Sequence record: OK040806
DNA from: Escherichia phage CL1
Strand: one strand, 5' to 3'
DNA: 64,000 nucleotides
Of the stretch, positions 5,137 through 35,680 are shown in pieces; the first letter of the stretch is position 1, and each line of letters begins with the position of its first letter. Made by a program: the position numbers and the translations under genes. Under the pieces are notes generated by a model. The model was given only the letters and a program-made list of their open reading frames with translations, was not told the origin of the DNA and made no database searches.

Positions 5137-7371
5137 ATGATTAAGACAATTAAAAAATCAAACGGTACAGTAGTAAGCTTTGACCCAGAAAGATTGAATA
5201 AGTGGGCATCATGGGCAGACAAGCGTGGAATTATCTGGTCAGAAGTCACTATGGAAGCCATGAAGCGCGTCTATGAAGGTTGCACTACAAAAGAGATGCA
5301 CCAAGCCATGATTGATGTTTGTGTTGATAAACAAACTCAAGAGTACTCAGACATGGCTGGACGGCTACTTCTGGGGATTATCTACAAAGAAGCCTTTGGA
5401 GGCTTTACTAAGGTTCCTACGCTGGTTACCTTCGTTAAAAATATGGAGAGAGCAGGACTTTGGGAGAAGATGGACTATTCTCAGGAAGAGCTTGAATACC
5501 TGCAAGGGTACATTGTGCACTCAAAAGATATCTCTTACGGCTATGCAGTGTTGAAACAGTTCAGAGACAAATATGGTATCCGTGATATTAAAACTGGAAG
5601 ACTTTTTGAGTCACCACAATTTATGTTTATGGGTATGGCTATGAAAGCCTTTGAGAAGCAACCAAAGCACCGTAGACTGCAAGATGTTATTAAGCTGTAC
5701 ACTTACCTATCTGACCTGAAGATTAATGCTCCTACGCCTTATCTGAATGGTTTAAGAGCCACTAAGTCAGGTTATGCGTCATGTTGTTTGATTAAGGCAA
5801 ATGATACTGCTGAGTCACTTGGTATTGCTGCAAAGGTTGCTTATGATATGACTACAAAGCAAGCTGGTATTGGTATGCTGATGGAGACTCGCACTATTGG
5901 TGATGGTATTCGTCAAAACACTATCGAACACATGGGTAAGCTACCTTATTACAAGCTTGTACGTTCATCTGTAGAGGCAAATAAACAGAAGAGTCGTGGT
6001 GGTTCAGCTAACAACTTCTACACTGCTCTAGACCCGCAGATTGAAGATTTACTGCGTTTGAAGCACCCTACAACGGTTCCTTCTAAACGTATTAACGAGA
6101 TGGACTACTCATTTGGTACAAATGACTATTTCTGGCAGTGTGTTCAATATGATACAGACTGGTTGTTATTCTCTTATAAGGATGCACCAAAACTTTATGA
6201 TATGTTCTACACCGCATCTGCTGATGAGTTTGCTATGGCAGTTGGTCACGCAGTACATTCTGGTGTTAAACACAGACGAGTAAAGGCTCGTGAAATTGCT
6301 AAACTATTTATCCAGCAGCGTTACGCAACAGGTCGTGTGTACCCATTCTTCACAAATAATGCAAACACACATACACCATTTAAAGAGCCTTTGAAGATGT
6401 CAAACCTTTGTATGGAAATTGTGTTGCCAGTATACGGTTTTGAGAAGGAGACAGACCTTTACAGAGATGATGCTGTGAAAGAGGATGGTGAGGTAGCTCT
6501 TTGCTTCCTAGCTAGTTTGGTTGCAGGGAGAATTTCAGAAGATGAATACGCTGACGTTGCTTATTATGCTCTTGCAATGGTTGACTCCGTTATTGACCTT
6601 ATGGATTATCCGTATCCGTCGATGCGTAACCATGTTCAGAAGCGTCGTTCTGTTGGTATTGGCCTTACAAATGTGGCTCATTACCTTGCGAAAAACTACG
6701 TGAACTATTCTTCAAGAGCAGGTAAGACAAAGCTTCATGAGCTTGCTGAAATGCACTCTTACTACTTACATGAAGCCTCTTTAAGACTTGCTAAAGAGCG
6801 CGGTGTACCTGAATACATGAAGTTCACTAAGTATCCTGAAGGGTGGGTTCCTCCAAAGACAGCTAACAAGAAGATTGATGAGAAGCATGATGCAAAACTA
6901 AGATATGATTGGGATGACTTAGCACAACGTATTAAAGAAAATGGTGGAATCCGTAACTCTGTATTAGAAGCTTACATGCCTAATGAGAGTTCTTCACTGG
7001 CAACTAATACGACAAATGGCTTGTACCCAATTCGTGACTTTATTTTAACTAAAAAGTCTGCAACTGGTAACGTACTGTTTATTGTTCCAGATTATGAAGA
7101 GTTGAAGTATGTCTATGAAATTGCTTGGGATATTGACACCTTTGACCTGATTGATTGTTATGCAATTGTTCAAAAGTTCACTGGTCAAGCTATCTCTTCA
7201 GATTTCTATGTTGACTACGCAAAAGCTAAGAAGGTATCATTGGCTCAAGCTTTGAAGTACATGATTTATGCCAACTCAGTAGGTATGAAAACCATGTACT
7301 ACCTTAACAGTCGCATCGGTGTAGGTAAGTCTGCACTGCAAGATGCTTATTGCGAGGGTTGTGGTGTTTAG
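5137..7371 (+). CDS. nrdA: ribonucleoside-diphosphate reductase large subunit (class Ia)
   Basis: N-terminal ATP-cone-like IKKSNGTVVSFDPERL, active-site NLCMEIVLP, C-terminal CEGCGV; 744 aa. Confidence 0.95.
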   Translation: MIKTIKKSNGTVVSFDPERLNKWASWADKRGIIWSEVTMEAMKRVYEGCTTKEMHQAMIDVCVDKQTQEYSDMAGRLLLGIIYKEAFGGFTKVPTLVTFVKNMERAGLWEKMDYSQEELEYLQGYIVHSKDISYGYAVLKQFRDKYGIRDIKTGRLFESPQFMFMGMAMKAFEKQPKHRRLQDVIKLYTYLSDLKINAPTPYLNGLRATKSGYASCCLIKANDTAESLGIAAKVAYDMTTKQAGIGMLMETRTIGDGIRQNTIEHMGKLPYYKLVRSSVEANKQKSRGGSANNFYTALDPQIEDLLRLKHPTTVPSKRINEMDYSFGTNDYFWQCVQYDTDWLLFSYKDAPKLYDMFYTASADEFAMAVGHAVHSGVKHRRVKAREIAKLFIQQRYATGRVYPFFTNNANTHTPFKEPLKMSNLCMEIVLPVYGFEKETDLYRDDAVKEDGEVALCFLASLVAGRISEDEYADVAYYALAMVDSVIDLMDYPYPSMRNHVQKRRSVGIGLTNVAHYLAKNYVNYSSRAGKTKLHELAEMHSYYLHEASLRLAKERGVPEYMKFTKYPEGWVPPKTANKKIDEKHDAKLRYDWDDLAQRIKENGGIRNSVLEAYMPNESSSLATNTTNGLYPIRDFILTKKSATGNVLFIVPDYEELKYVYEIAWDIDTFDLIDCYAIVQKFTGQAISSDFYVDYAKAKKVSLAQALKYMIYANSVGMKTMYYLNSRIGVGKSALQDAYCEGCGV

Positions 7372-7426
7372 TTTTAATAACTATGAGGGTCGTAAAAGAC
7401 CCTCTAAAAATAACTTTGGAGAAACT

Positions 7427-7684
7427 ATGAAAGACTTAATAGCAAATCACGAATGGCCCATATACTTGCTCCACAAACCTCGGAAAACGCTGTACTATGT
7501 GAGTAGCACAGATATGATGATAAAACAGAAGGATGACTCATGGGTCGCTGGTGTCTCTTACATCTCTACAGCAGATGGTAAAATCTATGCAAGACCTTAT
7601 GACATGTTTAATAAAGAAAATTGGGAAGTTTTAGACAGAAAACAAGCCTTAGAGATGATAAAGAAAGGAGAAATCACACTATGA
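7427..7684 (+). CDS. hypothetical protein
   Basis: ATG 7427 after GGAG; track ORF start 7343 lies inside nrdA; stop overlaps nrdB start (ATGA). Confidence 0.4.
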   Translation: MKDLIANHEWPIYLLHKPRKTLYYVSSTDMMIKQKDDSWVAGVSYISTADGKIYARPYDMFNKENWEVLDRKQALEMIKKGEITL

Positions 7685-8754
7685 CTAACCAACACCCAAT
7701 CTTTTTAGGTGGTGAGAGAAAGACATTTGACTCACTTAATAAACACTACCCAAAAATCTTTGAACTATACAAACAACAAAAAGCACAAGATTGGTCAGAA
7801 GATGAGTTCCCTTTTGAACAATCACGTCTTGACTTTGAAAGCGTACCAGCATCAATGTCAGGTGTAATGCTTGAGATTCTTAAGTGGCAGTGGGAAGCAG
7901 ATACCCAAGTTGCTAAGAGTTTAGCGTTTGCTTTTGCACCATTCATCTCTGATGACATTTATGCAACTGCAATTATGAAGCAGTCTGAGATTGAAAACTT
8001 ACATGCTCTGACTTACTCGGAAATTGTAAGACAATGTATTAAAAATCCTGAAACAATCTTAGATGAGATTAACCAGAACATTGCTGTACAAGACCGATTA
8101 AAAACTGTGAATCGTGTTCTTGAAGAATTACTGGATGAAGGTATAAACTATCGACTGAGTTATGTCCGTGACTCACTTCTGGACAAAGACCCTTTGCACT
8201 TCCATAAAGTGATTCTAAAAGGTCTATTTGCAGTGACTGCACTGGAAGGTATATCCTTTATGGCATCCTTTGCATGTACTTTTGCACTTGATGCTCAAGA
8301 TAAATTTCAGGGTATTGCTCAAGCTGTACAGAAAATTATGCTTGATGAAATCCTTCACACTAAAATTGATATTGAAGTTTTAAAAGAAACTTTAAGAGAT
8401 GATGAGTGGCAAAAAGCTTTCCAACAAATTCTTCCAGAGATTAAAGTAATCTTAGATGAAGTAGTTGAAAGCGAAGAAAAATGGTCGTATTATATCTTCT
8501 CCGAAGGACGTGCTGTAGTTGGGTTAAATACAAAGCTTCTTCATGAGTGGGTTTACTATAATGCTGCCCCACTGTATGATATGTTTGGCATTCCTAGAGA
8601 TTTTGTAGCTCCTAAAGAACCACCTTTGAAGTATATGATTAAGAAGATGGAAATTGATAAAGAGCAGAATGCTAATCAGGAGCAACAGAACGGTGCGTAT
8701 TTATTGAATACTGTTGTAGATGATTTGAATAGTGGATTTTTAGAGGTTCCTTAA
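7681..8754 (+). CDS. nrdB: ribonucleoside-diphosphate reductase small subunit
   Basis: ATG 7681 after AAAGGAG; ferritin-like helical protein directly downstream of nrdA. Confidence 0.9.
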   Translation: MTNQHPIFLGGERKTFDSLNKHYPKIFELYKQQKAQDWSEDEFPFEQSRLDFESVPASMSGVMLEILKWQWEADTQVAKSLAFAFAPFISDDIYATAIMKQSEIENLHALTYSEIVRQCIKNPETILDEINQNIAVQDRLKTVNRVLEELLDEGINYRLSYVRDSLLDKDPLHFHKVILKGLFAVTALEGISFMASFACTFALDAQDKFQGIAQAVQKIMLDEILHTKIDIEVLKETLRDDEWQKAFQQILPEIKVILDEVVESEEKWSYYIFSEGRAVVGLNTKLLHEWVYYNAAPLYDMFGIPRDFVAPKEPPLKYMIKKMEIDKEQNANQEQQNGAYLLNTVVDDLNSGFLEVP

Positions 8755-25446: not shown

Positions 25447-26232
25447 ATGGGTATTGTGAAAATCATCAATGGTGATATCTTTGCAGCATTTGATAAAGGT
25501 AAGTTTGATGTCATCGGTCACGGTTGCAACTGTATGAACTTAATGGGTGCAGGTATCGCTGACAAGATTTCTAAACTTTACCCAAAAGCATATGAGACTG
25601 ATACAGAAGTTTATCTGTATGCAGGTGGCATAGGCCACAAGCCCTGTGAGAATTTACTAGGCAATTTCTCTGTAGCACGTTTAAAACAAGGTCGTATAGC
25701 TAACCTTTACACTCAGCTTAAGACTGGTAAAGATGCCCGATACAGTGCTTTAGAGTCATCTTTGAAACAACTTAACAGATACTGTGAAGTAAATCAGTTG
25801 AAGAAAGTTGGCTTGCCTATGATTGGTGCAGGTATCGGTGGGCTAGACCCTCAAGCCGTCACAGTTATCATTAATCAGGTGATGAAGAGTGTAGATGTGT
25901 ATCTGTATGTCTACGAGACAAAGATGTACAACGAGTTACACTCAGGTTGGAAGAACTACTGCGAACCAGAATACTTTGCAGGTGTAGTAACGTTCACAGA
26001 CAATACAGTTACCCTCTTCAGACGAAGAAAAGGTAAGATACATCAAAGTAACCCTCCGGTTGAGAAGATGTCTCTAAGTAACGCTCTAGTTACCCACCTG
26101 TCGAAGAGCAATCACAGGATAGCTGTAACATTTGGTAGTGATGCAGATACATATATCTATGCAAGAACTGATGAGGATATCGAGACGGTCTTCTCTTCAC
26201 CAGAAGTTACCTTTTTAGGCGCAAAGAACTAA
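25447..26232 (+). CDS. macro-domain-like protein (putative ADP-ribose binding/hydrolase) with C-terminal extension
   Basis: INGDIF..DVIGHGCNCMNLMGAGIA and VGLPMIGAGIGGLDP resemble the two conserved macro-domain glycine-rich motifs. Confidence 0.45.
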   Translation: MGIVKIINGDIFAAFDKGKFDVIGHGCNCMNLMGAGIADKISKLYPKAYETDTEVYLYAGGIGHKPCENLLGNFSVARLKQGRIANLYTQLKTGKDARYSALESSLKQLNRYCEVNQLKKVGLPMIGAGIGGLDPQAVTVIINQVMKSVDVYLYVYETKMYNELHSGWKNYCEPEYFAGVVTFTDNTVTLFRRRKGKIHQSNPPVEKMSLSNALVTHLSKSNHRIAVTFGSDADTYIYARTDEDIETVFSSPEVTFLGAKN

Positions 26233-26304
26233 GAAAATCTGTATAATATTCACAATAGACTAAGCCTTTCTTATCTGGTAAATTTTTTCAGGTAAGGAGG
26301 GCTT

Positions 26305-26500
26305 TTTTTATTTCAAGATTGTGCAGGTAGAGTTCTGTAGAGAAATCTGTAGAGAGAATTTTGAACTCCAAAGAGAAAATTCATTTTCAAACTGTGCAGG
26401 TAATCTCCAAAGAGCTTTTTCATTTTCAAAACGTGCAGACCCCGCTCAGGTCGGGCAAGAAAAATCATTTTAGAATTGTGCAGGTAGGTGGGTGCAGGTG
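26305..26500. repeat. degenerate direct repeats TTTCAA(A)NTGTGCAGGTA (4 copies) plus tandem duplication of a ~38-bp unit
   Basis: Copies near 26315, 26383, 26423, 26471; unit CTCCAAAGAG..CATTTTCAAA..GTGCAG repeated at 26368-26445; no credible coding frame. Confidence 0.5.
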
Positions 26501-26662
26501 GGAATGTCGCCATTTCTCACAAGGCTACCACATCTGGAAATAAAAGTCAACAGAAAAATTTGTAGCGGATTGAAAAATAATTCTTGATTGTAGTTCTGTT
26601 TTGTGGTAGTCGCGCGCACCCGTTTCATTACAATTTTGCAAAAAATATTTTTAAAATTCCTA

Positions 26663-26691
26663 TTGACTCTTTGAGTATGGTTATCTAATAT
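26663..26691 (+). promoter_or_regulatory. sigma70-like promoter (TTGACT-N17-TAATAT) for the small-ORF array
   Basis: TTGACT 26663-26668, TAATAT 26686-26691, about 50 nt upstream of ATG 26742. Confidence 0.55.
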
Positions 26692-26741
26692 TTGCATCAG
26701 ACGGGCAAGCCAGCCCACTTCCTAAACTGGAGAATCTAAAA

Positions 26742-26948
26742 ATGCTTTACAGTCGCGAATTGATGGTTACAACTAACGTTAACACAGGTGTAAAACGTTT
26801 CTACATGCAAATCTGCGGCGTATGGTCCAGAATATCAGAAGATGACTATTGCAACTATGTAGGAACGGCTATTAATTCTAATTGCTATCTGACAAGAAAC
26901 ACTAAGAAATTTACAAGGCAGACAGCGATTTACTACTACGACAAATAA
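26742..26948 (+). CDS. array ORF 1, hypothetical (68 aa)
   Basis: ATG preceded by conserved CTAAACTGGAGAATCTAAAA. Confidence 0.5.
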   Translation: MLYSRELMVTTNVNTGVKRFYMQICGVWSRISEDDYCNYVGTAINSNCYLTRNTKKFTRQTAIYYYDK

Positions 26949-27036
26949 AGTACTTTACAGGGGGCTTAAAAGCTGATATCTTAAGCCCCAGATAAAGAGC
27001 TTTACTAAATTAACCCTTAAACTAGGAGATTCAAAA
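26949..27036 (+). repeat. type A intergenic cassette (copy 1, variant)
   Basis: GGGGCTTAA..TTAAGCCCC hairpin + AGATAAAGAGCTTTAC + CTAGGAGATTCAAAA leader. Confidence 0.6.
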
Positions 27037-27417
27037 ATGGCTTATCGTGCACCGAAATTCATCAACAAAGACAACTTCCGCAACGCACTGGAGAAGTCAC
27101 TTGATGAAAAATTTAACGGCAAATTGATTGTTGTTCACGCATTCAATTTTAAGTATGATATTAACGGGAATAAAATCAACCATTACACGGCAACCATGTT
27201 AGATGGTACGCTATCAAGTGAAAAAGCCGTACTGAATGCACTTGCAGGACGTGGTAAAAACCTGATAAGATGCGATAAGAGACGTTATCAGGGTGGCGCA
27301 TATGGTTATGATGATGCTGTTTATCATCTTGAAAATATGGGCTATTCAGTGGAAAAAGCTGGAGTGTCTCAAATAATCGGCAGTGATGGTTATGTAACAA
27401 TCTTCAAAATTAACTAA
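27037..27417 (+). CDS. array ORF 2, hypothetical (126 aa)
   Basis: Conserved leader AAACTAGGAGATTCAAAAATG. Confidence 0.55.
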   Translation: MAYRAPKFINKDNFRNALEKSLDEKFNGKLIVVHAFNFKYDINGNKINHYTATMLDGTLSSEKAVLNALAGRGKNLIRCDKRRYQGGAYGYDDAVYHLENMGYSVEKAGVSQIIGSDGYVTIFKIN

Positions 27418-27505
27418 TAAAGTACTTTACAAGGGGCTTATAGTTCGATAAAGTAAGCCCCAGATAAAGAGCTTTACCACTAAATCCTAAATTGGAGATT
27501 CAAAA
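27418..27505 (+). repeat. type A intergenic cassette (copy 2)
   Basis: TTTACA-N17-TAAAGT promoter-like element overlapping hairpin GGGGCTTATAGTTCGATAAAGTAAGCCCC, then AGATAAAGAGCTTTAC and conserved leader. Confidence 0.6.
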
Positions 27506-27763
27506 ATGGCTATCATCAAAAACGTTGTAATTACTGCAAAGACTCGTGATGACGCTCGCATCATGGCGAAAAAGTTAGGCGGGAAAGTGGTTGACAACGG
27601 AAAACAATCTGCTGTAAGATGGGGCGTGAAGGCTGATAAAAAGTTAACCTTAAAACGCAGTTCAAATAACCTCTTTAAAGGTGTAAAATCACTCGGTAAA
27701 GTGAACGTGTTTACTAAACAAGGTTACAAAATGCACTTATCATTAACTGGCAATTTAATCTGA
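27506..27763 (+). CDS. array ORF 3, hypothetical basic protein (85 aa)
   Basis: Conserved leader; Lys-rich. Confidence 0.55.
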   Translation: MAIIKNVVITAKTRDDARIMAKKLGGKVVDNGKQSAVRWGVKADKKLTLKRSSNNLFKGVKSLGKVNVFTKQGYKMHLSLTGNLI

Positions 27764-27852
27764 TAAAGTACTTTACAAGGGGCTTATAGTTCGATAAAGT
27801 AAGCCCCAGATAAAGAGCTTTACTAACTAAATCCTAAACTGGAGATTCTAAA
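27764..27852 (+). repeat. type A intergenic cassette (copy 3)
   Basis: Near-identical to copy 2. Confidence 0.6.
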
Positions 27853-28365
27853 ATGAAAACTGTAGACGCTACCTTTGAAGTTGTAAAAGAAAAATTCACC
27901 ATTATTTATGAAGCTGTCAATTGCTTTGAAGCAAGCCATAATCTTGATAATTGGAAGTTTACAGATGACCATCAAGGCGGCGTGACGATTAAAAATCCTA
28001 ACTGTCAGAGTAATGAATTTAAATATGCAATCCCTTTGCATTACAGCCTTAAGCAGCTTTCAAGTGACTATGCAAAACAAGGCCGTGAGAATCCATCGAA
28101 AGAGGCTTACACGAGCTTACAGAAAGAACTAGAAAGGGATTTAGAGGCTTCAGAGTATAACATTGCCGCGAAAGTTGTAGATGCAAACGGTAGCACGGTT
28201 TTAGAGAGTTTTTATATTGGTTATGCTTTCGATTGGTGCTACAGTGACGGCGATGATTTAGATGACAGACTAAAAGAGGAAGTGAACAACGCAGACGCAG
28301 AATCTGAAGTATTAGAACGCTTGGAAGCATTAAAAGATTCAGTGATGAATATCTTTAAGAACTAA
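27853..28365 (+). CDS. array ORF 4, hypothetical acidic protein (170 aa)
   Basis: Conserved leader; acidic C-terminal region DGDDLDDRLKEEVNNADAESE. Confidence 0.55.
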   Translation: MKTVDATFEVVKEKFTIIYEAVNCFEASHNLDNWKFTDDHQGGVTIKNPNCQSNEFKYAIPLHYSLKQLSSDYAKQGRENPSKEAYTSLQKELERDLEASEYNIAAKVVDANGSTVLESFYIGYAFDWCYSDGDDLDDRLKEEVNNADAESEVLERLEALKDSVMNIFKN

Positions 28366-28453
28366 ATAGATTTCTTTACACGGGGCTAACAAGCGGATAT
28401 GATAGCCCCAGATAAAGAGCTTTACTACTAAATCCTAAACTGGAGACTCTAAA
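28366..28453 (+). repeat. type A intergenic cassette (copy 4, variant loop)
   Basis: GGGGCTA..TAGCCCC hairpin + AGATAAAGAGCTTTAC. Confidence 0.55.
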
Positions 28454-28750
28454 ATGAAATTATCGAATAAAGTTCGTGAAAACCTTAGTAAATTACTCAA
28501 CAAAATTGATTTTATCGAGACATCAAGAAATAATCATGATGTTATGGAATGGTTGCACGGCAAAATAAAAGGCCGTCGCGTAGTGATTTGCTTATGGAAT
28601 AGTTGCAGGGAGTATAAAAAGCCTGTATTGCAAATTAATGTTTATGATGATACTTTTAAAAGTCCTGTAAAGTCTAAAAGCGATTTATTAGAATCCTATG
28701 AGATAACTGTAAATGGCAAAGTATCACGTAAAGAGGAAACACCATGTTAA
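28454..28750 (+). CDS. array ORF 5, hypothetical (98 aa)
   Basis: Conserved leader. Confidence 0.55.
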   Translation: MKLSNKVRENLSKLLNKIDFIETSRNNHDVMEWLHGKIKGRRVVICLWNSCREYKKPVLQINVYDDTFKSPVKSKSDLLESYEITVNGKVSRKEETPC

Positions 28751-29076
28751 TGACTGGTATCACTGCAATCATTGCCATTTTCGCGCTATATAAGGCATAT
28801 AAAGCCTATAATCTAGCAAATAAGGCAATCACACAGCAAGTTAGTAATAACCTTGTAGAGAGCTTTCTAGGGCGTTTAAGTGATGAGCAAATAAAGCGGC
28901 TAGAGATGAGCTTCAGATATAAAGCGAAAACCTATCAGATAAGTGACATCTTCAAAGAGGATTTTCAGCTTGTCGATGATTATAACTCACTGATAAATGC
29001 TTTAAATATCAGTGACTTAAAAGATTATTACGCTGTAATTGTCCAAGAACTGAACAAACGAAAACAAAACTGTTGA
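28744..29076 (+). CDS. array ORF 6, membrane protein (110 aa)
   Basis: ATGTTAA overlap with ORF 5 stop; N-terminal TM helix GITAIIAIFALY. Confidence 0.5.
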   Translation: MLMTGITAIIAIFALYKAYKAYNLANKAITQQVSNNLVESFLGRLSDEQIKRLEMSFRYKAKTYQISDIFKEDFQLVDDYNSLINALNISDLKDYYAVIVQELNKRKQNC

Positions 29077-29162
29077 CACTGATTTTTAGATAACCTAAAT
29101 TACTAATCAACGGGAGGGATGACCTCCCACTAAACAAAGTCCTTAAACTAGGAGATTCAAAA
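29073..29162 (+). repeat. type B cassette (copy 1): promoter + GGGAGG..CCTCCC leader hairpin
   Basis: TTGACA 29073-29078, N17, TAAATT 29096-29101; leader AATCAACGGGAGGGATGACCTCCCAC; then AAAGTCCTTAAACTAGGAGATTCAAAAATG. Confidence 0.6.
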
Positions 29163-29435
29163 ATGTATACTACTAATAACGGTCGTACTCTAAATGTAAC
29201 TTTGCGCCACTATGTTAACGGCGTGATGCACTTTGAAGATTTACAAGCTGAACAACATATCTTAGATTGGCAACTTGCAGGACTACAAAAAACTGCTACA
29301 GGATACGGGAAAAAGATTCCAACTAGTTGGAAAGTATACTATGAAGGGCGTTTGCGCAGAATTTATCAAGATGTATACAGCAATAGCGCAACAAGTTACA
29401 TCATGGTAAAAGGTAAAAAATTACACTTAGTATAA
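29163..29435 (+). CDS. array ORF 7, hypothetical (90 aa)
   Basis: Conserved leader. Confidence 0.55.
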   Translation: MYTTNNGRTLNVTLRHYVNGVMHFEDLQAEQHILDWQLAGLQKTATGYGKKIPTSWKVYYEGRLRRIYQDVYSNSATSYIMVKGKKLHLV

Positions 29436-29521
29436 AGTACTTTACAAGGGGCTTATAGTTCGATAGAGTAAGCCCCAGATAAAGAGCTTTACTACTCAAT
29501 CCTAAATTGGAGAACTTAAAA
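29436..29521 (+). repeat. type A intergenic cassette (copy 5)
   Basis: Same hairpin and AGATAAAGAGCTTTAC element. Confidence 0.6.
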
Positions 29522-29926
29522 ATGGCTATTAATAACCGTGAGTTATCAATCTTAAAAGCACGTTTGACCGTTAACCGGATTAATGTTATTACGTCATCAG
29601 CACCGGACGAAACATTACACAACATTATTGGGAAGATTCAAAGTGTTATCTTAGACGTTGAAAGCGTAAAAAACTCATTGGCTGACGTTGCAGCAGGTAT
29701 CACGCTAGACGGTGCACAATATGAAATGGCTGACATGTTAGGCAAATCAAAGGTAATGAATAAAGAGCTTGATTTAAAAATGTTCCGTTTTGCCGTGAAA
29801 GTGTGGCTATCTGTCGAGTATGACGCAAATTTTGCAATCGCTGACTTTTTCGCAACATGGTTGCAACGTAATTTAACAAATTATGATTTTCGTGATATCT
29901 GTGACGCAATTTACGCAGAACTCTAA
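29522..29926 (+). CDS. array ORF 8, hypothetical (134 aa)
   Basis: ATG 29522 follows conserved leader; track start 29507 lies in the leader. Confidence 0.5.
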   Translation: MAINNRELSILKARLTVNRINVITSSAPDETLHNIIGKIQSVILDVESVKNSLADVAAGITLDGAQYEMADMLGKSKVMNKELDLKMFRFAVKVWLSVEYDANFAIADFFATWLQRNLTNYDFRDICDAIYAEL

Positions 29927-29935
29927 AAAATTTTA

Positions 29936-30025
29936 TTGACACTGATTTTTAAAACAAGTAAATTACTAATCAACGGGAGGGATGACCTCCCCACTAAGTA
30001 AAGTCCTTAAACTAGGAGATTCAAA
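29936..30025 (+). repeat. type B cassette (copy 2)
   Basis: TTGACA 29936-29941, TAAATT 29959-29964, GGGAGGGATGACCTCCCC hairpin. Confidence 0.6.
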
Positions 30026-30226
30026 ATGGCTATTATCAACGGTTTAAACATTGAAACTACTCATATCAAAGATATCAAAGTTGGCGATGTAGTCCTTTCC
30101 CACGGCGTAGAAAAAACTGTCACTGCAAAGGATATTAAAGAGGATTCTTTCATGGGTAGGACTCTCTTCGGTGATTCTTATTGCTTAGGTTATCTTGCAG
30201 TTTTAAAAGTTGTCAAAAATAACTGA
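30026..30226 (+). CDS. array ORF 9, hypothetical (66 aa)
   Basis: Conserved leader. Confidence 0.5.
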   Translation: MAIINGLNIETTHIKDIKVGDVVLSHGVEKTVTAKDIKEDSFMGRTLFGDSYCLGYLAVLKVVKNN

Positions 30227-30321
30227 TAAAGTACTTTACAAGGGGCTTATAGTTCGATAAAGTAAGCCCCAGATAAAGAGCTTTACCACTAAATCAAGTC
30301 CTTAAACTAGGAGATTCAAAA
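30227..30321 (+). repeat. type A intergenic cassette (copy 6)
   Basis: Same hairpin and leader. Confidence 0.6.
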
Positions 30322-30885
30322 ATGAAATGCTATCACGGAACTACACTCAAAAACTTTGTAAACCTGCTGAATGGTGGCGATAAGCCTGAAGGTATCTGGA
30401 ACTGTTCCTACATGGACGATTGTTTCTATGTTTACCCAATGAATAAGGTTATCAAAATGGGATGTCTGGAAGATGAAGAAGATTCTTACATCCGTGAACG
30501 CTGCATTCAAAGTGCCTTAGAGTCGGGGCTTATTACGGCTGCTTTCCAAATGGAAACGCAGGACGTGATTGTTATTGAAATGGATATCCCAGAGGAAGAA
30601 CTAGAGGACGATTATTCTTGTGACAACATGAGCGAAATTGCCAGCTTTACCGGATACTTTGATAAAAATTGGATTGTTAGCATCCACTCAACGAAATTTA
30701 GTGCGATGTATGCACCTTTCTTTGTACCTGATACGAAAAACCGCAACTTGGGATATGTTGACGATGATTTGTTGAGTATTGCAAAAATTGTACAGAATAG
30801 CGGTGATAGTTCCGTGTTTTGTGACCTACTGGATAAAATCACGGAAAACCTCACAGAACGCAATTTAAAGGACTTTTTAGGATAA
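30322..30885 (+). CDS. array ORF 10, hypothetical acidic protein (187 aa)
   Basis: Conserved leader; acidic stretch DIPEEELEDDYSCD. Confidence 0.55.
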   Translation: MKCYHGTTLKNFVNLLNGGDKPEGIWNCSYMDDCFYVYPMNKVIKMGCLEDEEDSYIRERCIQSALESGLITAAFQMETQDVIVIEMDIPEEELEDDYSCDNMSEIASFTGYFDKNWIVSIHSTKFSAMYAPFFVPDTKNRNLGYVDDDLLSIAKIVQNSGDSSVFCDLLDKITENLTERNLKDFLG

Positions 30886-30948
30886 GCAGTACAAAGACAC
30901 CAACTTTTAACTTAAGGCCCACACAGGGCCATTTAGAGGGCTTCAAAC

Positions 30949-31182
30949 ATGCTTACAACCGTTTATCTTATCCTTTCTATTTGTAATGGTCATTCATGTG
31001 ATTTTAAAGGGCTTGAGGAGTTTACAGGAAGTAAAGAAAATGCCGTTCAGGTCTGTCAGATAGCAAGACAAGACTACCCCGCCAGTGATGATATACAATG
31101 TTACTTTAAGACAGAAGATGAAGAGGGTATCTATTTCGATAGTGTAGACGGGCAATATGAAATTATCATTGAAAAAGACTAG
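30949..31182 (+). CDS. array ORF 11, small protein with hydrophobic N-terminus (possible secreted/lipoprotein)
   Basis: MLTTVYLILSICNG; no standard cassette upstream, GGCCCACACAGGGCC hairpin instead. Confidence 0.4.
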   Translation: MLTTVYLILSICNGHSCDFKGLEEFTGSKENAVQVCQIARQDYPASDDIQCYFKTEDEEGIYFDSVDGQYEIIIEKD

Positions 31183-31271
31183 ACAAGCCTGATAAAAGTC
31201 TGTAAATTGTCAATCAACGGGAGGCGATAACCTCCCAACTAAACAAAGTCCTTAAACTAGGAGATTCAAAA
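31183..31271 (+). repeat. type B cassette (copy 3, variant)
   Basis: TAAATT + GGGAGGCGATAACCTCCC hairpin + conserved leader. Confidence 0.5.
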
Positions 31272-31613
31272 ATGGCTTATGTAACCGTAATTACCAATAA
31301 AGAAGATTCATCTTGGTCAACTCAAGTAAGCGATAAGATGTCACCTATGCAGTGCCTAAAATACTTTGAGCAATGGAACAAAGGCGAGGATACCAGCCCC
31401 TTTCAAGTGATGCAGATTATCCATACAGATAACGAAGGGAATAAAACTGTTTTGAATAGTGAGTACTATGCAACCAGATTCGAAACGAGAAGTAAAGCAA
31501 TGAAGCTCTTACGTGAATCCGGTTATTCTCATATTGCCGCGCTAATCTGGGATGACCTGCTAAAAAATCAGCGTATCAGCTACGTAAAACCTGAAAAAAT
31601 ATTCATCAGTTAA
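31272..31613 (+). CDS. array ORF 12, hypothetical (113 aa)
   Basis: Conserved leader. Confidence 0.55.
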   Translation: MAYVTVITNKEDSSWSTQVSDKMSPMQCLKYFEQWNKGEDTSPFQVMQIIHTDNEGNKTVLNSEYYATRFETRSKAMKLLRESGYSHIAALIWDDLLKNQRISYVKPEKIFIS

Positions 31614-31739
31614 TCAATAACTTACAAAAAACTTTTAAAAAAGTGTTGACAATACCCCTTGACATTGGTAACTTTGTTCGAGGGGGTTTATCTAAAAGGG
31701 ATTAACTTAAAAGATTCTTTATAGATAAACTTAAAAAAT

Positions 31740-31836
31740 TGCTTGCAATCAGATATCAAAACAAGTAAATTACTAATCAACGGTGAGGGAATGAACTTCC
31801 TCACTAAATAAAGTCCTTAAACTAGGAGATTCAAAA
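31740..31836 (+). repeat. type B cassette (copy 4, variant)
   Basis: TAAATTACTAATCAACGG + GAGGGAATGAACTTCCTC hairpin + leader; preceded by extra TTGACA element near 31647. Confidence 0.5.
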
Positions 31837-32367
31837 ATGAACAAATTTCAAGCTATCAACTACATTCGCTCAAATGCTGTAATGTCTAAGCCTGTTAAAG
31901 ATACCTATGAATTTCGCTGCAATGGGGTACACTTTGCAACCATTACCAAATCAGAAAACGGGGTTTATTACATTCATCGCCGTAATGTTTATACTGTTGT
32001 AGTCTCTCACTTTATGAAAGCTGTAGCGGAATTATTACCGTTATTCTTAGAGATTTACTTGGATGAGTGTAAAAACGTTCATAGCCACGTTAAAAACCTT
32101 TTAAATAGCTATAAAATGGCTTATGAACGTTCAATCAAGTCCTTAAACAAGTTCTATAAAGCCCCTGTAAATACTGTTTCAATGGCCTACGCTGCAAATG
32201 GTGAAAGAGTAAGACTATCCGATGTGGAAGATATCGAGCTTTACGACCATCGCCCTAACGGTTACTCTCAGACCCTCGGTGAAGGTTTAACGTTCAATAT
32301 CAAGAACTTAGAAAAAACTTTAAAAGATATTGAAAAAGATATTGACGAGACAATCAAAAATCTGTAA
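31837..32367 (+). CDS. array ORF 13, hypothetical (176 aa)
   Basis: Conserved leader. Confidence 0.55.
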   Translation: MNKFQAINYIRSNAVMSKPVKDTYEFRCNGVHFATITKSENGVYYIHRRNVYTVVVSHFMKAVAELLPLFLEIYLDECKNVHSHVKNLLNSYKMAYERSIKSLNKFYKAPVNTVSMAYAANGERVRLSDVEDIELYDHRPNGYSQTLGEGLTFNIKNLEKTLKDIEKDIDETIKNL

Positions 32368-32432
32368 ATTATCAATCAACGGGAGGGATAACCTCCCTAC
32401 TAAGCAAAGTCCTTAAACTAGGAGTTATCAAG
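32368..32432 (+). repeat. type B cassette (copy 5)
   Basis: TAAATT + GGGAGGGATAACCTCCC hairpin + leader. Confidence 0.55.
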
Positions 32433-32705
32433 ATGGAACACGTCGAACTGACCACACTTTTACAAATTGCAACCGACAAAGAGGATGTAGCATTATTCCA
32501 CCGCATCGAAAGTGATTTATTCAATGGTGAAATCATTAAAGAATCTTACGAAGTTGTCGGATTCAAAGACGGTAAAGCGTTCGGATTCTTTGACCTCGAC
32601 AAAGGCAAAGCGGTTACAAAATATGATGTTTTATCTTGTGAGATTCTTACAAAATACAACGAAAAAAAGGCTTGCAACATACGCCAACATGCAGTAAATT
32701 ACTAA
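32433..32705 (+). CDS. array ORF 14, hypothetical (90 aa)
   Basis: Leader variant CTAGGAGTTATCAAGATG. Confidence 0.5.
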   Translation: MEHVELTTLLQIATDKEDVALFHRIESDLFNGEIIKESYEVVGFKDGKAFGFFDLDKGKAVTKYDVLSCEILTKYNEKKACNIRQHAVNY

Positions 32706-32762
32706 TCAACGGGAGGGATAACCTCCCTACTGAATAAAGTCCTTAAACTAGGAGATTCTAAA
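32706..32762 (+). repeat. type B cassette (copy 6)
   Basis: TAAATT + GGGAGGGATAACCTCCC hairpin + leader. Confidence 0.55.
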
Positions 32763-33011
32763 ATGGCAACTATCCGCGCAACTATCAATGCTTATGGCTG
32801 TTATACTCTGGACGTTAAATTTGATATTGGTGGAACTGATGAATGCTTTTCATTAGTGAAGACAGTTATCAAGCAAGTTATCCCAGATTATAACCCTACT
32901 GATGACTTCTGGAAAGATGCTGTAAAAGAGGCATTAAACGATGAGCATCACTATCATTACTGGGGTGACTTGATTGTCTCCCTGTACTACAATAAACAAG
33001 GTTACAACTAA
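32763..33011 (+). CDS. array ORF 15, hypothetical (82 aa)
   Basis: Conserved leader. Confidence 0.55.
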   Translation: MATIRATINAYGCYTLDVKFDIGGTDECFSLVKTVIKQVIPDYNPTDDFWKDAVKEALNDEHHYHYWGDLIVSLYYNKQGYN

Positions 33012-33049
33012 TCGACGCAGCGGGGCTAAATAGCCCCAGATACCTTTAC

Positions 33050-33071
33050 AGCCCCTTAAATGGGCTTTTTT
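33050..33071 (+). terminator. intrinsic terminator ending the plus-strand array
   Basis: AGCCC-CTTAAAT-GGGCT then TTTTTT; preceded by GGGGCTAAATAGCCCC hairpin. Confidence 0.55.
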
Positions 33072-34650
33072 ACGTCTTATTAAATCCTTTCCCTTTCCTT
33101 TCCAGAATCTTACTAGACCTTAAAAGCAATAACTCTATAGTCTACTCTATAGCCTTTTATCAAATCAACTTAAATATAAGCCCATAACCCGAAAGGGAAG
33201 GGCAACCATTTAAACGCTCTATAAAGCCCTATAACAGCCTTATCAACCTAACTTAAGGGATTGCATTACTCCACGCTTAAAAGCTCTTTATAAAGCTTCT
33301 CAGAGCCTTAAAAGAATCTTATAAGGGTGTAAGCTTTATCATCTCGTTAGTATCTTGTGAATAACTAAAAAGGGCTTGTTAGTGTCTTAAAAGTATGTTA
33401 TAGGGGCTATAAAGTTGCTTAAAAGTTGCTATAAAGTTACGTAAATGCTAGCCCCCTTAACATTTTCTTAACAAATTTTTAACAATCCCTACATAGTTAT
33501 GCTTTTAAGGCACTTGTTAACAACTTGTTAGCCCCTTGTTAAATCTCTGTTAAGACCACGTAAAAGCCTTGTAAGAGTCTTTGACATAGCCTTAAAAGCT
33601 CCTGTAAAGCCCTATAAAGAGCTTTCTATATAGTTGGGGTGCAATTACTAGGGAGAGGCTTAAAAGAGCTTACAAAGAGCTATAGAGAGCTTTTAAGAGG
33701 GCTATTTAAAGGGTCACTAAGAGGGAAAGGGAACTATAGACCAAGAGATAGTGACCATGTTAATAGCTTGTTAAAAAGATTAAACACTTGTTAGGAACTT
33801 GTTAATTATCTTAACAAAATAACTCTTAAAAATTAACTTGTTAGCTCTTGTTAGTCATCTGTTAAGACTCTGTAAAGCCTACGTATCAACTGTTAAAAAA
33901 CTGTTAAGCTCTTGTTAGTTCTGTTAAGAATCTGTTAAGACCTCTGAAGAGATGTTAAGAAGATGTAGCAACTGTTAAGAGATTGTTAATGATATTTTAA
34001 AATTTTGCAAAGGGGATGTTACAGGGATGTTAAGGGCTACCAAGCAGATATATATCTTCTACAGATATTTTTGAGTTCCTTCAAAGACCCTAAAAAATGA
34101 CTTGATAGCTCTATTTTATAAAAATTTTAAAATTCTGAATAATTACCTAGACAGTCTTTTAAAAATACAGGTAGAAACAGGCTTATAAGATACCTTGTTA
34201 GTACCGTGTTAGACCTTGTGAGATAAGGTCTGTAAAGATATTCCTGTTAAGTTTGCTAAAACAGTCTATATAGAGGCTTAGTATTTCCTAGTGAACACCT
34301 ATAGAGAGTGTCATAGCTGACATAGAGATTAAGAGGTGTATAGGAGCTTCTAAGAGGGTATAGAGGGATGGTTAAGGTGATTGTATAGGTTGTTAAGAAG
34401 GCTTGTTAGAAGAGTGTTTAAAGGGCTTGTTAGAGGGTTATTTAGAAGGCTTATACAGAGGGGCTATTAAGACCACTAGATAGTGACTAAGATACTATAT
34501 AGTACTATATAACTATATAGAGAGTAAGATTAAGAAGGTTGTTAAGAAGGGTAGATATTTTATTCACATATGATGGTGACCCAGAGGTTGGGACAACCGA
34601 TGAAATTTTATAAAAATTAAAAAGCCCCCAATTAAGGAGGCTCTTAAGAT
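33072..34650. repeat. 1.6-kb ORF-free AT-rich region densely packed with short direct repeats (TGTTAAG/CTTGTTAG family, TATAAAG/TTAAAAG words)
   Basis: More than 25 copies of NTGTTAA/G, clustered 33500-34020 and 34190-34560; palindromes near 34044 and 34490-34520; sits between converging plus and minus gene blocks. Confidence 0.6.
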
Positions 34651-34653
34651 ATT

Positions 34654-35202
34654 TTAAATCAGTGTTTCCAGAACTGTCTTCAGTGATGACTTGGTTGTCT
34701 GATAAAAATGAGCAAATCCATTGTTACTATCGAATATCTGCATCATGATATCATCTCCCTTGATTGGGTACACTCGGATATCATAGTGGAACCCATTAAA
34801 GACAGCAGAACCATTACAGAATGAACTAAAGTCATCCACTGAGATATACTCTTCATGACCTGTGATTTTTATACAAACACCTTTACTCGGTCTCTTAGGG
34901 TTGATATCTTCCATCACAGACATATTCTGTCCACCAAGAGACACCATAGTGACCACTTTACGGTTCTTCTGTCTAAAGTACATCTTAACTTTCTGCAAAG
35001 TGTCTTCATAGAACGGATAAGACCTTTCTACAAAGATTCCTTCAAGTGGCTCTTTACCATTTTCAACTTCTCGGTTATGCCGTACTGCAAAGATAATCTG
35101 TTCGAACCAGTCAAGATTTTCTTCGGAGAGTGCTTCCCGAATATCACTCCAATCAAGGACTAGATAGTTACCTTCAACTTCTTTTAAGTTATCTTTTTCC
35201 AT
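34654..35202 (-). CDS. hypothetical protein
   Basis: Track ORF 34654-35247 (start there is TTG); first ATG at 35202. Confidence 0.4.
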   Translation of the reverse strand: MEKDNLKEVEGNYLVLDWSDIREALSEENLDWFEQIIFAVRHNREVENGKEPLEGIFVERSYPFYEDTLQKVKMYFRQKNRKVVTMVSLGGQNMSVMEDINPKRPSKGVCIKITGHEEYISVDDFSSFCNGSAVFNGFHYDIRVYPIKGDDIMMQIFDSNNGFAHFYQTTKSSLKTVLETLI

Positions 35203-35215
35203 ATCTATCACACCA

Positions 35216-35680
35216 TTATCGTAAAACTTGGTAAGCTGGAACTGCAAACTTGTTGCCGTTGTTCTTAATGAGGTCTTCTTCTGTTACTAAGAATGTAATC
35301 CCACATAAGTGTGTGTAGTGGCTATCATACTCAAATATTTTAAGTAAGTATTTACCATCGTGATAAACAGATTCTACTACACCTTTTGCAACAATCTTTC
35401 CAGTCTTGAAATCTTTAAGATGGTATACATTTCCAACTTTAGGAACTGTTTTCATCTCAGGTTCTTTTAGTTTCTCACCAGCTTCTACATCACCTAGTAA
35501 GTGAGAACTTTCAAAAGCTACATGTCTCATATAAGCTTCTGAGCATTCCAAGATAAAGCAATGCACAAGAGCCTTAGCAGCATGTCTTGAACAATTCAAC
35601 TTATCACAAATCTCTTTGTACATTTTATCTTTAGTTGAATTGTTAAGCATTGCTTTTTGAACTACTACTTTAACTTTCAT
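35216..35680 (-). CDS. hypothetical protein
   Basis: 154 aa ORF with ATG start. Confidence 0.45.
   Translation of the reverse strand: MKVKVVVQKAMLNNSTKDKMYKEICDKLNCSRHAAKALVHCFILECSEAYMRHVAFESSHLLGDVEAGEKLKEPEMKTVPKVGNVYHLKDFKTGKIVAKGVVESVYHDGKYLLKIFEYDSHYTHLCGITFLVTEEDLIKNNGNKFAVPAYQVLR

Follow-up and report, generated by a model that had tools for sequence, protein, structure and literature searches.

A window of 64,000 nt from Escherichia phage CL1 (sequence record OK040806) was analysed, and the subject of this report is an array of 15 small open reading frames (ORFs; g1 to g15) at positions 26742-33011, in which nearly every gene is preceded by a conserved cassette of one of two classes, A and B. 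This locus is quite probably a hyperplastic early-gene array, composed of self-contained expression modules for host sigma70 that are delimited by hairpins and recombine within their repeats. The array region (26700-33100) was found to be 100% identical at the DNA level to that of Escherichia phage C600M2 (OK040807.1; Ounavirinae, Felixounavirus), and the window is a circular permutation of the 88.16-kb C600M2 genome. The array region matched 254 phage records, nearly all of them named Escherichia, Salmonella, Shigella or Citrobacter phages. The phage carrying the array is a Felix O1-like myovirus (Ounavirinae) and not a T4-type phage.

An earlier note on this DNA had described 15 small, mutually unrelated ORFs, six copies of each cassette class and a common leader ahead of nearly every gene, and these descriptions held. 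The ORFs, all on the + strand and encoding 66-187 amino acids (aa), correspond to 15 coding sequences annotated as hypothetical in C600M2 (C600M2_93-107). Their products have isoelectric points (pI) of 4.1-10.8, show no detectable relationship to each other (all pairwise E > 0.25), and fall each into its own PHROG, all of unknown function; none has a match in Pfam or, by sequence, in the PDB. The cassette A core (AGCCCCAGATAAAGAGCTTTAC) occurs in six exact copies against 0 expected by chance, and the cassette B core (TAAATTnnnAATCAACGGGAGG) in six copies against 0.02 expected, one of them with a divergent hairpin (Table 1). Of the 15 genes, 13 have the leader in front of them: seven copies differ by no more than 3 mismatches from the 25-mer quoted originally, five more represent a second sub-variant (TCCTAAAYTGGAGA), and g14 has a variant of its own. 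The two exceptions are g6, which overlaps g5, and g11, which follows a different spacer of 63 nt.

The intergenic spacers (57-99 nt) are filled entirely by the cassettes. Scanning of the whole 88.16-kb genome placed the strict cassette and leader motifs exclusively within the array, and on the + strand only. Canonical intrinsic terminators at 26265-26312 and 33050-33072 enclose the array (~6.3 kb). The first equals t13 of Felix O1 and is also an annotated terminator in phages AYO145A and Barry, and the second equals t23 of Felix O1. As to a spread beyond Ounavirinae, the invariant 15-mer was found in multiple copies only in contigs of ~54-90 kb (most of them 81-90 kb), single matches elsewhere being at chance level.

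Each of the six class A copies contains a promoter-like pair of hexamers, TTTACA-N17-TAnnnT, within a two-tier hairpin. In the RNA fold, a 12-bp lower stem (TAAAGTACTTTA/TAAAGAGCTTTA) that encloses the stop codon of the upstream gene is surmounted by a 3x3 internal loop, an upper stem of 8-9 bp (GGGGCTTA/TAAGCCCC) and an 11-nt loop, with folding energies of -22 to -24 kcal/mol (z = -3.3 to -4.2). This hairpin is longer than given in the earlier note, the lower stem with the stop codon and the 3x3 loop being additions to it. The -35 hexamer, TTTACA, lies between the two stems, and the -10 hexamer occupies the loop and the start of the 3' arm.

The conservation of this class was examined in an alignment of 56 distinct copies, drawn from 15 Felixounavirus, Mooglevirus and Suspvirus genomes. 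The CTTTACA containing the -35 element is invariant, as are the T and A that open the -10 hexamer, while the last T of the hexamer and a G two bases 5' of it are each conserved in at least 90% of copies. The GGGG and AGCCCCAGATAAAGAG segments are also invariant or nearly so. In contrast, the inner -10 bases vary (TAAAGT, TATCTT, TATGAT, TAGGAT, TAAGAT, TAGTAT, TACCAT, TATATT), as does the rest of the loop. This pattern, which structure alone would not predict, points to a sigma70 promoter with an extended -10 element. By eye, the sequence 5' of the -35 element reads ATAAAGTAC, on a background of 61% A+T.

The same alignment supports the two stems. In total, 89.5% of the stem cells are paired, compared to 34-54% when the partner column is slid, and the covariation score exceeds that of all 500 shuffles. 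At pair 8-59, 41 copies have GC and 11 have UA; pair 23-44 appears as CG (30 copies), UG (25) or UA (one), and pair 6-61 as AU (48) or GU (eight). The G.U wobbles argue that the stem is selected as + strand RNA and not as a DNA cruciform. Since the predicted transcription start lies 3' of the upper stem, the hairpin RNA would be formed only by read-through from upstream.

These properties also bear on a different assignment of roles, in which the class A hairpin would be a processing site for RNase III or another endonuclease. Long read-through transcripts would then be cut in the intergenic regions, as in early T7, into stable monocistronic mRNAs that end in a 3' hairpin, and the promoter-like hexamers would be secondary. 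A hairpin of ~20 bp, in which a 12-bp stem and an 8-9-bp stem flank a 3x3 internal loop and which lacks a U-tract, would suit such a site, as would wobble pairs selected in RNA that arises only by read-through. Duplex RNA of about two helical turns with an internal loop is the general form of RNase III substrates, such as the T7 R1.1-type sites. However, the conserved G(-14), T(-12), A(-11) and T(-7) within the otherwise variable loop, together with an invariant -35 element at 17 bp, are explained by a promoter instead. We regard a primary processing role as possible though rather unlikely; the two roles are compatible, so that this reading is more a refinement than an alternative. The class A hairpin may thus act as an attenuator, a 3' stabiliser or an RNase III site.

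The class B cassettes (six copies, plus the B-like cassette P1 in front of g1) have a different architecture: TTGnnn-N17-TAnnnT is followed by a GC hairpin that begins ~3 nt past the predicted start. All 45 distinct class B and P1 promoters carry TAnnnT at a fixed offset and a -35 element with at least 4/6 matches at exactly 17 bp, and this pattern is maintained even where the -35 element lies inside the upstream coding sequence. The structures were derived from folds of individual sequences, RNAalifold being unsuited here with MAFFT misaligning hairpins of unequal size. About 30 different sequences 3' of the conserved ATCAAC all form a GC stem of 4-9 bp from the same start position (for example GGGAGG/CCTCCC, GGGGAGGG/CCTTCCCC, GGGGC/GCCCC, GGGC/GCCC and GGGAA/TCCC), which lies 7-8 nt past the A of ATCAAC in all variants. 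With the predicted +1 at 7-8 nt past the -10 hexamer, ~3 unpaired nt would precede the hairpin. By eye, class B and P1 copies contain A/T runs such as AAAAAATTTTATTGACA and AAATATTTTTAAAATTCCTATTGACT, on the same background of 61% A+T, and in P1 an A/T-rich tract is present 5' of the -35 element.

Stem-loops at the very 5' end of a message, for example in the ompA 5' untranslated region (UTR), reportedly act as mRNA stabilisers (Emory, Bouvet and Belasco 1992). The class B and P1 hairpins resemble these in lying ~3 nt past the predicted +1, within the short single-stranded 5' extension that such stabilisers tolerate, a comparison based on a predicted transcript start.

The class B hairpin loop holds the sequence AATG. 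Several GenBank records start the downstream gene at this ATG (Felix O1 ORF19, Barry_0018, nataliec_24), which makes the annotated ORFs ~15 aa too long, and these start codons mis-called within hairpin loops are now flagged.

Both classes end in the shared leader, which is A-rich, has the 3' end UAGGAGAU-N7-AUG, and carries a GGAG Shine-Dalgarno sequence, part of which is taken into a weak mini-hairpin of 3-4 bp. The leader exists as CCT-AAAYT-GGAG (314 copies) or as CCTT-AAAYT-AGGAG (156 copies), the latter having a paired insertion by which the mini-hairpin gains one U-A pair; no intermediate with a single insertion was found among the 470 copies. A more elaborate scheme for the class A hairpin and the leader, which we consider doubtful, would be joint post-transcriptional control. 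The mini-hairpin would occlude the Shine-Dalgarno sequence, and an RNase or translational repressor of host or phage origin would process the early messages and then shut them off together. In addition, recombination from one cassette to another would free circles of a gene with its cassette, and these would carry accessory genes between co-infecting Ounavirinae.

To compare arrays across relatives, as the earlier note had suggested, gene-content strings were compiled for 15 arrays from GenBank and 20 from IMG/VR (35 arrays from three genera). The content proved variable in an unvarying gene order. The genes or blocks often absent in relatives are g1, g2, g2-g3, g3, g4, g9, g9-g11, g7-g12, g13, g14 and g15, and some relatives carry extra array genes. 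Thus, g1 is absent in AYO145A, bumzen and Mushroom, g2 in tootiki, Felix O1 and ST11, g4 in Barry, g9 in Felix O1 and ST11, and g14 in 7 of the 15 GenBank arrays. Divergent alleles were found for g3 (a 97-aa allele with ~70% identity in relatives), g10, and g15, for which two allele groups show ~60% and 95-99% identity to the copy in the window. The cassette may also change: g12 is preceded by class B in Felixounavirus and by class A in Mooglevirus, while SUSP2 has a class A copy and an extra 48-aa ORF directly 5' of g12. At 31646-31690, where the array has a promoter and hairpin but no gene, relatives have an ORF of 38-48 aa (nataliec_25, KPS64 gp112, Mordin gp029), and this element looks like the remnant of a lost gene module.

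The degree of plasticity was measured as the number of related records in which a single place covers at least 80% of an equal-sized query. The array reached this coverage in only 16 of 254 related records. A structural control segment reached it in 252 of 262, and the neighbouring segment from rII to the macro-domain gene in 204 of 269.

The positions of the crossovers were then determined. In five independent indels the junction is a hybrid cassette, its promoter coming from the upstream partner and its leader, with the ORF, from the downstream one, and three-way alignments located the switch of parentage within the shared hairpin or leader in all five. In LF82P9, a g7-type promoter, fused past the end of g6, precedes g13. 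In Felix O1 and ST11, g12 has a g9-type promoter; g15 has a g13-type promoter in ST11 and a g14-type promoter in several phages. Gene pairs without a cassette between them (g5/g6 and g10/g11, the latter separated by a 63-nt spacer with a GGCCC...GGGCC hairpin) were split in 1 of 53 cases, compared to 54 of 288 for pairs separated by a cassette (Fisher p = 0.0009, phylogenetically uncorrected). The g5 and g6 genes occur together in 27 of 28 arrays, while g10 and g11 are both present in 21 arrays and both missing from 4, with no discordant case.

The cassettes themselves also bear marks of exchange. For class A spacers, the nearest neighbour is a paralog from the same genome in 22 of 37 copies, and the cassette copies are apparently homogenised within genomes by concerted evolution. 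A Mooglevirus contig (IMGVR_UViG_2974556886_000001, reverse-complement 7040-7900) carries a 430-bp unit, cassette A plus g3, twice in tandem, with the junction at ATG|CTTTACA. In Mordin (positions 1150-1230), two cassette A copies form a tandem whose junction is the internal CTTTAC repeat. These two tandems could reflect true unequal exchange or an error of assembly. The only array with a deletion that does not end in a cassette is IMGVR_UViG_2706796256_000001, in which g5 is missing and g6 is cut to 82 aa.

Taken with the promoter and hairpin patterns, these comparisons suggest the following mechanism. Each module extends from the stop codon of one gene to the start codon of the next and comprises a predicted sigma70 promoter, a GC-rich RNA hairpin and an A-rich leader. 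As RNA, the class A hairpin would most likely mark, attenuate or protect the 3' end of the upstream message, and as duplex DNA the same segment would fire a fresh transcript for the next gene. The class B or P1 hairpin would be a 5'-terminal stem-loop, a type known in E. coli to shield mRNAs from decay dependent on the 5' end. The 60-90-nt modules, being near-identical direct repeats, would support homologous recombination within a genome or between co-infecting relatives, by which whole genes may be deleted, inserted or swapped, leaving one intact hybrid module. Recombination of this kind would let array content vary among relatives with gene order fixed. The gene products would be early accessory proteins that probably serve in takeover of the host or in counter-defence. 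The module anatomy, the conservation patterns, the hyperplasticity and the crossover positions are direct observations, and from the conservation patterns we infer the activity of the promoters and of any terminators.

Several observations weigh against this interpretation. The order from g1 to g15 is never permuted, all 35 arrays being collinear, so that recombination has not reshuffled the genes; the gene shuffling proposed in the earlier note thus stands for gain, loss and allele replacement of whole genes but not for their order. With hardly any intergenic space free of a cassette, selection for intact genes would by itself partly account for breakpoints in cassettes. The cassette hairpins, which lack a U-tract, are not canonical intrinsic terminators. 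Few compensatory changes in the class A stems are independent, the cassette copies being related by descent. Promoter-like hexamer pairs are in little excess in the region (33, compared to 24 +/- 5 in shuffles). No maps of transcript 5' or 3' ends for Ounavirinae phages were found in the literature searched. Finally, Felix O1 ORFs 17, 19 and 23 (g5, g7 and g15) were assigned to 25 min by RT-PCR (reverse transcription PCR), in a gel-based and crude assay (PMC3185647).

Two of these points, the collinear order and the constraint that an indel sparing the genes must end in or near a cassette when nearly every intergenic space is filled by one, would equally suit repeats that are mere regulatory boilerplate, kept by constraint and common descent and with no special part in gene gain or loss. 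Such repeats would not explain why the junctions retain exactly one full-length hybrid cassette with the parentage switch inside the shared stretch, nor why hairpin and leader alleles are mosaic among positions and paralogous copies homogenised within genomes. Tandem A-A junctions and the tandem duplication of cassette A plus g3 also exist, and the single non-cassette deletion, which truncates g6, indicates that such deletions occur but are rare. We therefore judge the boilerplate explanation unlikely, and a role of the modules in recombination is preferred. Part of the breakpoint pattern may nevertheless reflect selection for intact genes and not recombination preference.

As to termination, the sequence 3' of the hairpins is AGATAAAG in class A and ACTAAA in class B. 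A terminator scan of the region returned only the hairpin and T-run at 33050-33066 and two weak 5-pair matches on opposite strands within g10 (30700-30716). Canonical (Rho-independent) terminators were accordingly ruled out for the cassette hairpins on the missing U-tract.

In the RT-PCR analysis of Felix O1, ORFs 16, 20, 21 and 22 (g4, g8, g12 and g13) peaked at 5 min (PMC3185647), which lends limited support to the main reading, as does the Bas63 result given below. No correlation between cassette class and timing was apparent in the RT-PCR data. The peaks at 25 min for some array genes could be taken to mean that the promoters are middle or late ones requiring a phage factor, with the invariant (G/A)CTTTACA as an activator box. 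Many class A copies read GTGCTTTACA, which contains TGCTTTA, and this heptamer resembles the consensus of the T4 MotA box. However, TGCTTTA lies 19 nt from the -10 hexamer, compared to ~12 nt in T4 middle promoters, and on this spacing the MotA-box-like reading of GTGCTTTACA was rejected. The C600M2 copies read TACTTTA, and TTTACA, placed exactly 17 bp from TAnnnT, makes a good -35 element for sigma70. The class B promoters have the canonical TTGACA. In addition, the authors of the Felix O1 study reported no RNA polymerase or specificity-modifying proteins (PMC3185647). Dependence on a phage activator is thus very unlikely, and recognition by host sigma70 remains the preferred reading.

Small unrelated ORFs between conserved imperfect inverted repeats also bear a superficial likeness to mobile arrays, in which the hairpin repeats would be mobility sites (resembling integron attC sites, miniature inverted-repeat transposable elements (MITEs) or repetitive extragenic palindromic (REP) elements) and not expression signals. 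This is extremely improbable. All copies point the same way, lie at a constant distance from the start codon and have a promoter within them; they are limited to one locus in one phage subfamily; and their G.U-tolerant stems point to RNA. Neither terminal inverted repeats nor target duplications were seen, and the part of the annotation that was inspected contains no integrase or transposase gene. The uniform orientation, the constant spacing to the ATG, the promoter within each copy and the RNA-type wobbles led to the rejection of an attC or MITE origin.

The arrangement proposed here has a precedent in the promoter-early stem-loops (PeSLs) of the T4-like phages RB49/phi1, PST/T4 and nt-1/KVP40 (Arbiol et al. 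2010, PMC2839356; Comeau et al. 2014, PMC4122927). Both share a sigma70-type promoter, although early timing is inferred in the array, and a stem-loop with G-run and C-run arms, which in PeSLs lies between the -35 and -10 elements, overlaps the -10 or follows just 3' of it. In the array, the class A stem-loop lies between the -35 element and the end of the -10, and that of class B just 3' of the -10. In both, the motifs cluster in a hyperplastic region whose small genes have no known function, and relatives differ by indels or replacements with crossovers inside the motif. All PeSL features that can be computed are present in the array, except the AT-rich tract 5' of the -35 element, which was judged by eye.

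There are also differences. The array phage belongs to an unrelated subfamily and its motif sequences are lineage-specific; there are just two sharply defined classes with a shared, standardised leader; and in class A the stop codon lies in an additional, lower stem. All copies are confined to one terminator-bracketed array, whereas PeSLs occur in several regions, and the gene order is strictly collinear. Moreover, the promoter, terminator and mini-circle activities of PeSLs were shown by experiment, while those of the array cassettes would be predictions from sequence. The match to PeSLs made in the earlier note thus holds for the promoter type, the G-run/C-run stem-loop, the hyperplastic region and the crossovers in the motifs, in a phage that is Felix O1-like and not T4-type. 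The best reading is that the cassettes are PeSL equivalents in a new lineage, the Ounavirinae, the taxonomic scope of the PeSL definition being descriptive and not mechanistic. In the literature searched, PeSLs are described only in T4-like phages. The occurrence of promoter-stem-loop modules with different sequences in a subfamily unrelated to these suggests convergence, and if convergent, the modules would be a general means by which virulent phages keep a plastic set of individually expressed early genes.

The early region of phage T7 combines promoters for the host polymerase with intercistronic RNase III hairpins. It resembles the array in its small non-essential early genes with strong host promoters and in its intergenic hairpins, which are long and imperfect, contain an internal loop and lack a U-tract. 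However, T7 has three clustered promoters at a single operon start, compared to one per gene in the array, and its hairpins are cut by RNase III, for which those of the Felix O1 type are candidates by their predicted shape.

Part of the repeat family has been noticed before. The 57-bp direct repeat of Felix O1 (CTTTACATGGGGCTTAAAAGTCTGTAAAGTAAGCCCCAGATAAAGAGCTTTACCACT) is cassette A, and the 39-bp repeat (TTGACACTGGTTTTTAGATAGATTAAATTACACATCAAC) is the class B promoter. The genome paper (Whichard et al. 2010) listed repeats between genes 15/16, 19/20, 18/19 and 20/21 without calling them promoters or hairpins, and stated that promoters downstream of the terminators and temporal control were unknown (PMC3185647). 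The literature searched contained no account of Felix O1-like phages in which the cassettes are described as promoters or PeSLs. The cassettes offer a concrete and testable answer to where transcription of the Felix O1 block starts, a question left open by the genome paper. They also locate gene-content variation in a group of phages that has wide use in typing, biocontrol and therapy, and provide a parts list of 13 natural units, each a promoter with its 5' UTR, in graded variants.

The 15 array genes are candidates for host-takeover or counter-defence roles, and for one ortholog a host-dependent effect on fitness is known: in the part of the Bas63 essentiality preprint that was accessible, g107 (the g10 ortholog) is conditionally essential on E. 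coli S17-1, and is the sole array gene mentioned there. Homologs of g8 were found in 233 phage records, all of enterobacterial Ounavirinae, and the g4, g8 and g10 families are confined to this group. An AlphaFold2 model of g4 had a high mean confidence (predicted local distance difference test, pLDDT, 90.8) and no convincing structural relative in the PDB, while the model of g10 was poor (pLDDT 51). An Rfam scan of 25500-35500 at E <= 1 gave just two sub-threshold chance matches, mir-708 and Phe_leader.

Codon usage was compared between the array and the rest of the window. Of the four codons named in the earlier note as more frequent in the array, GCG (6.0 vs 2.5 per 1000), ACG (9.1 vs 3.4) and GGC (13.9 vs 8.5) are indeed enriched, but CCG is not (1.8 vs 2.7); CGC is likewise enriched (10.9 vs 2.3). 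Pooled against their synonymous alternatives, GCG, CCG, ACG and GGC give a Fisher odds ratio of 2.5 (p = 3e-7). The GC content at third codon positions is 0.365 in the array and 0.330 in the rest (per-gene Mann-Whitney p = 0.064), while total GC is lower in the array (0.375 vs 0.395). The bias is modest and fits weakly adapted accessory genes; that it stems from early genes being read before the 26 tRNAs of the phage accumulate is speculation.

The features of the array and its boundaries are compiled in Table 1.

Table 1. Genes, cassettes and boundary elements of the array (positions in the window)
Feature	Position	Strand	Details
Intrinsic terminator, left array boundary, 3' of the macro-domain gene	26265..26312	+	Hairpin GCCTTTCTTATCTGG...CAGGTAAGGAGGGC then T7, read by eye
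P1, B-like cassette for g1	26663..26741	+	TTGACT-N17-TAATAT; hairpin GGGCAAGCCAGCCC at 26703-26716; leader variant 2
g1	26742..26948	+	68 aa, basic
Cassette A copy 1	26949..27036	+	-10 = TATCTT; leader 1
g2	27037..27417	+	126 aa
Cassette A copy 2	27418..27505	+	-10 = TAAAGT; leader 2
g3	27506..27763	+	85 aa, pI 10.8
Cassette A copy 3	27764..27852	+	Leader 2
g4	27853..28365	+	170 aa, acidic
Cassette A copy 4, divergent sub-type	28366..28453	+	7-bp upper stem; -10 = TATGAT; variant lower stem
g5 and overlapping g6, single module without cassette between	28454..29076	+	98 aa; 110 aa with N-terminal hydrophobic helix
Cassette B copy 1	29073..29162	+	TTGACA-N17-TAAATT; hairpin GGGAGGGATGACCTCCC; leader 1
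g7	29163..29435	+	90 aa
Cassette A copy 5	29436..29521	+	-10 = TAGAGT; leader 2
g8, best-conserved array gene	29522..29926	+	134 aa
Cassette B copy 2	29936..30025	+	
g9	30026..30226	+	66 aa
Cassette A copy 6	30227..30321	+	Leader 1
g10 and g11, single module	30322..31182	+	187 aa, acidic; 77 aa, hydrophobic N-terminus with Cys
Cassette B copy 3	31180..31271	+	-35 = TAGACA; overlaps g11 stop codon
g12	31272..31613	+	113 aa
Gene-less promoter and hairpin, apparent remnant	31646..31690	+	TTGACA-N17-TAACTT with CCCC...GGGGG arms
Cassette B copy 4	31743..31836	+	TTGCAA-N17-TAAATT; divergent hairpin GGTGAGGGAATGAACTTCCTCAC (core at 31766)
g13	31837..32367	+	176 aa
Cassette B copy 5	32342..32432	+	-35 = TTGACG; within g13 coding sequence
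g14	32433..32705	+	90 aa
Cassette B copy 6	32672..32762	+	-35 = TTGCAA; within g14 coding sequence
g15	32763..33011	+	82 aa
Degenerate cassette A half, then intrinsic terminator, right array boundary	33021..33072	+	GGGGCTAAATAGCCCCAGATACCTTTAC (33021-33048); AGCCCCTTAAATGGGCT + T6

The gene directly 5' of the array (25447-26232) encodes a 261-aa macro-domain protein (Pfam PF01661, E = 1e-7) annotated as O-acetyl-ADP-ribose deacetylase. PDB entry 8rsi shares the deacetylase name and is of similar size. Between the left terminator and P1, the non-coding segment 26313-26660 contains three exact copies of TGTGCAGGTA, at 26320, 26393 and 26477 (spacing 73 and 84 nt).

On the other side of the array, a 1.6-kb non-coding stretch (33070-34650) extends from the terminator to the first gene on the minus strand and is dense with short iterons. 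It holds 13 of the 28 matches to CTTGTTA in the window, all on the + strand and often spaced by 11 nt, as well as the CTTAAAAG, CTATAAAG and TGTTAAGA families. Several GenBank relatives are linearised within this stretch, a candidate replication origin, packaging site or protein-binding array. Further downstream, a cluster of 26 tRNA genes is located on the + strand at 44139-49275.

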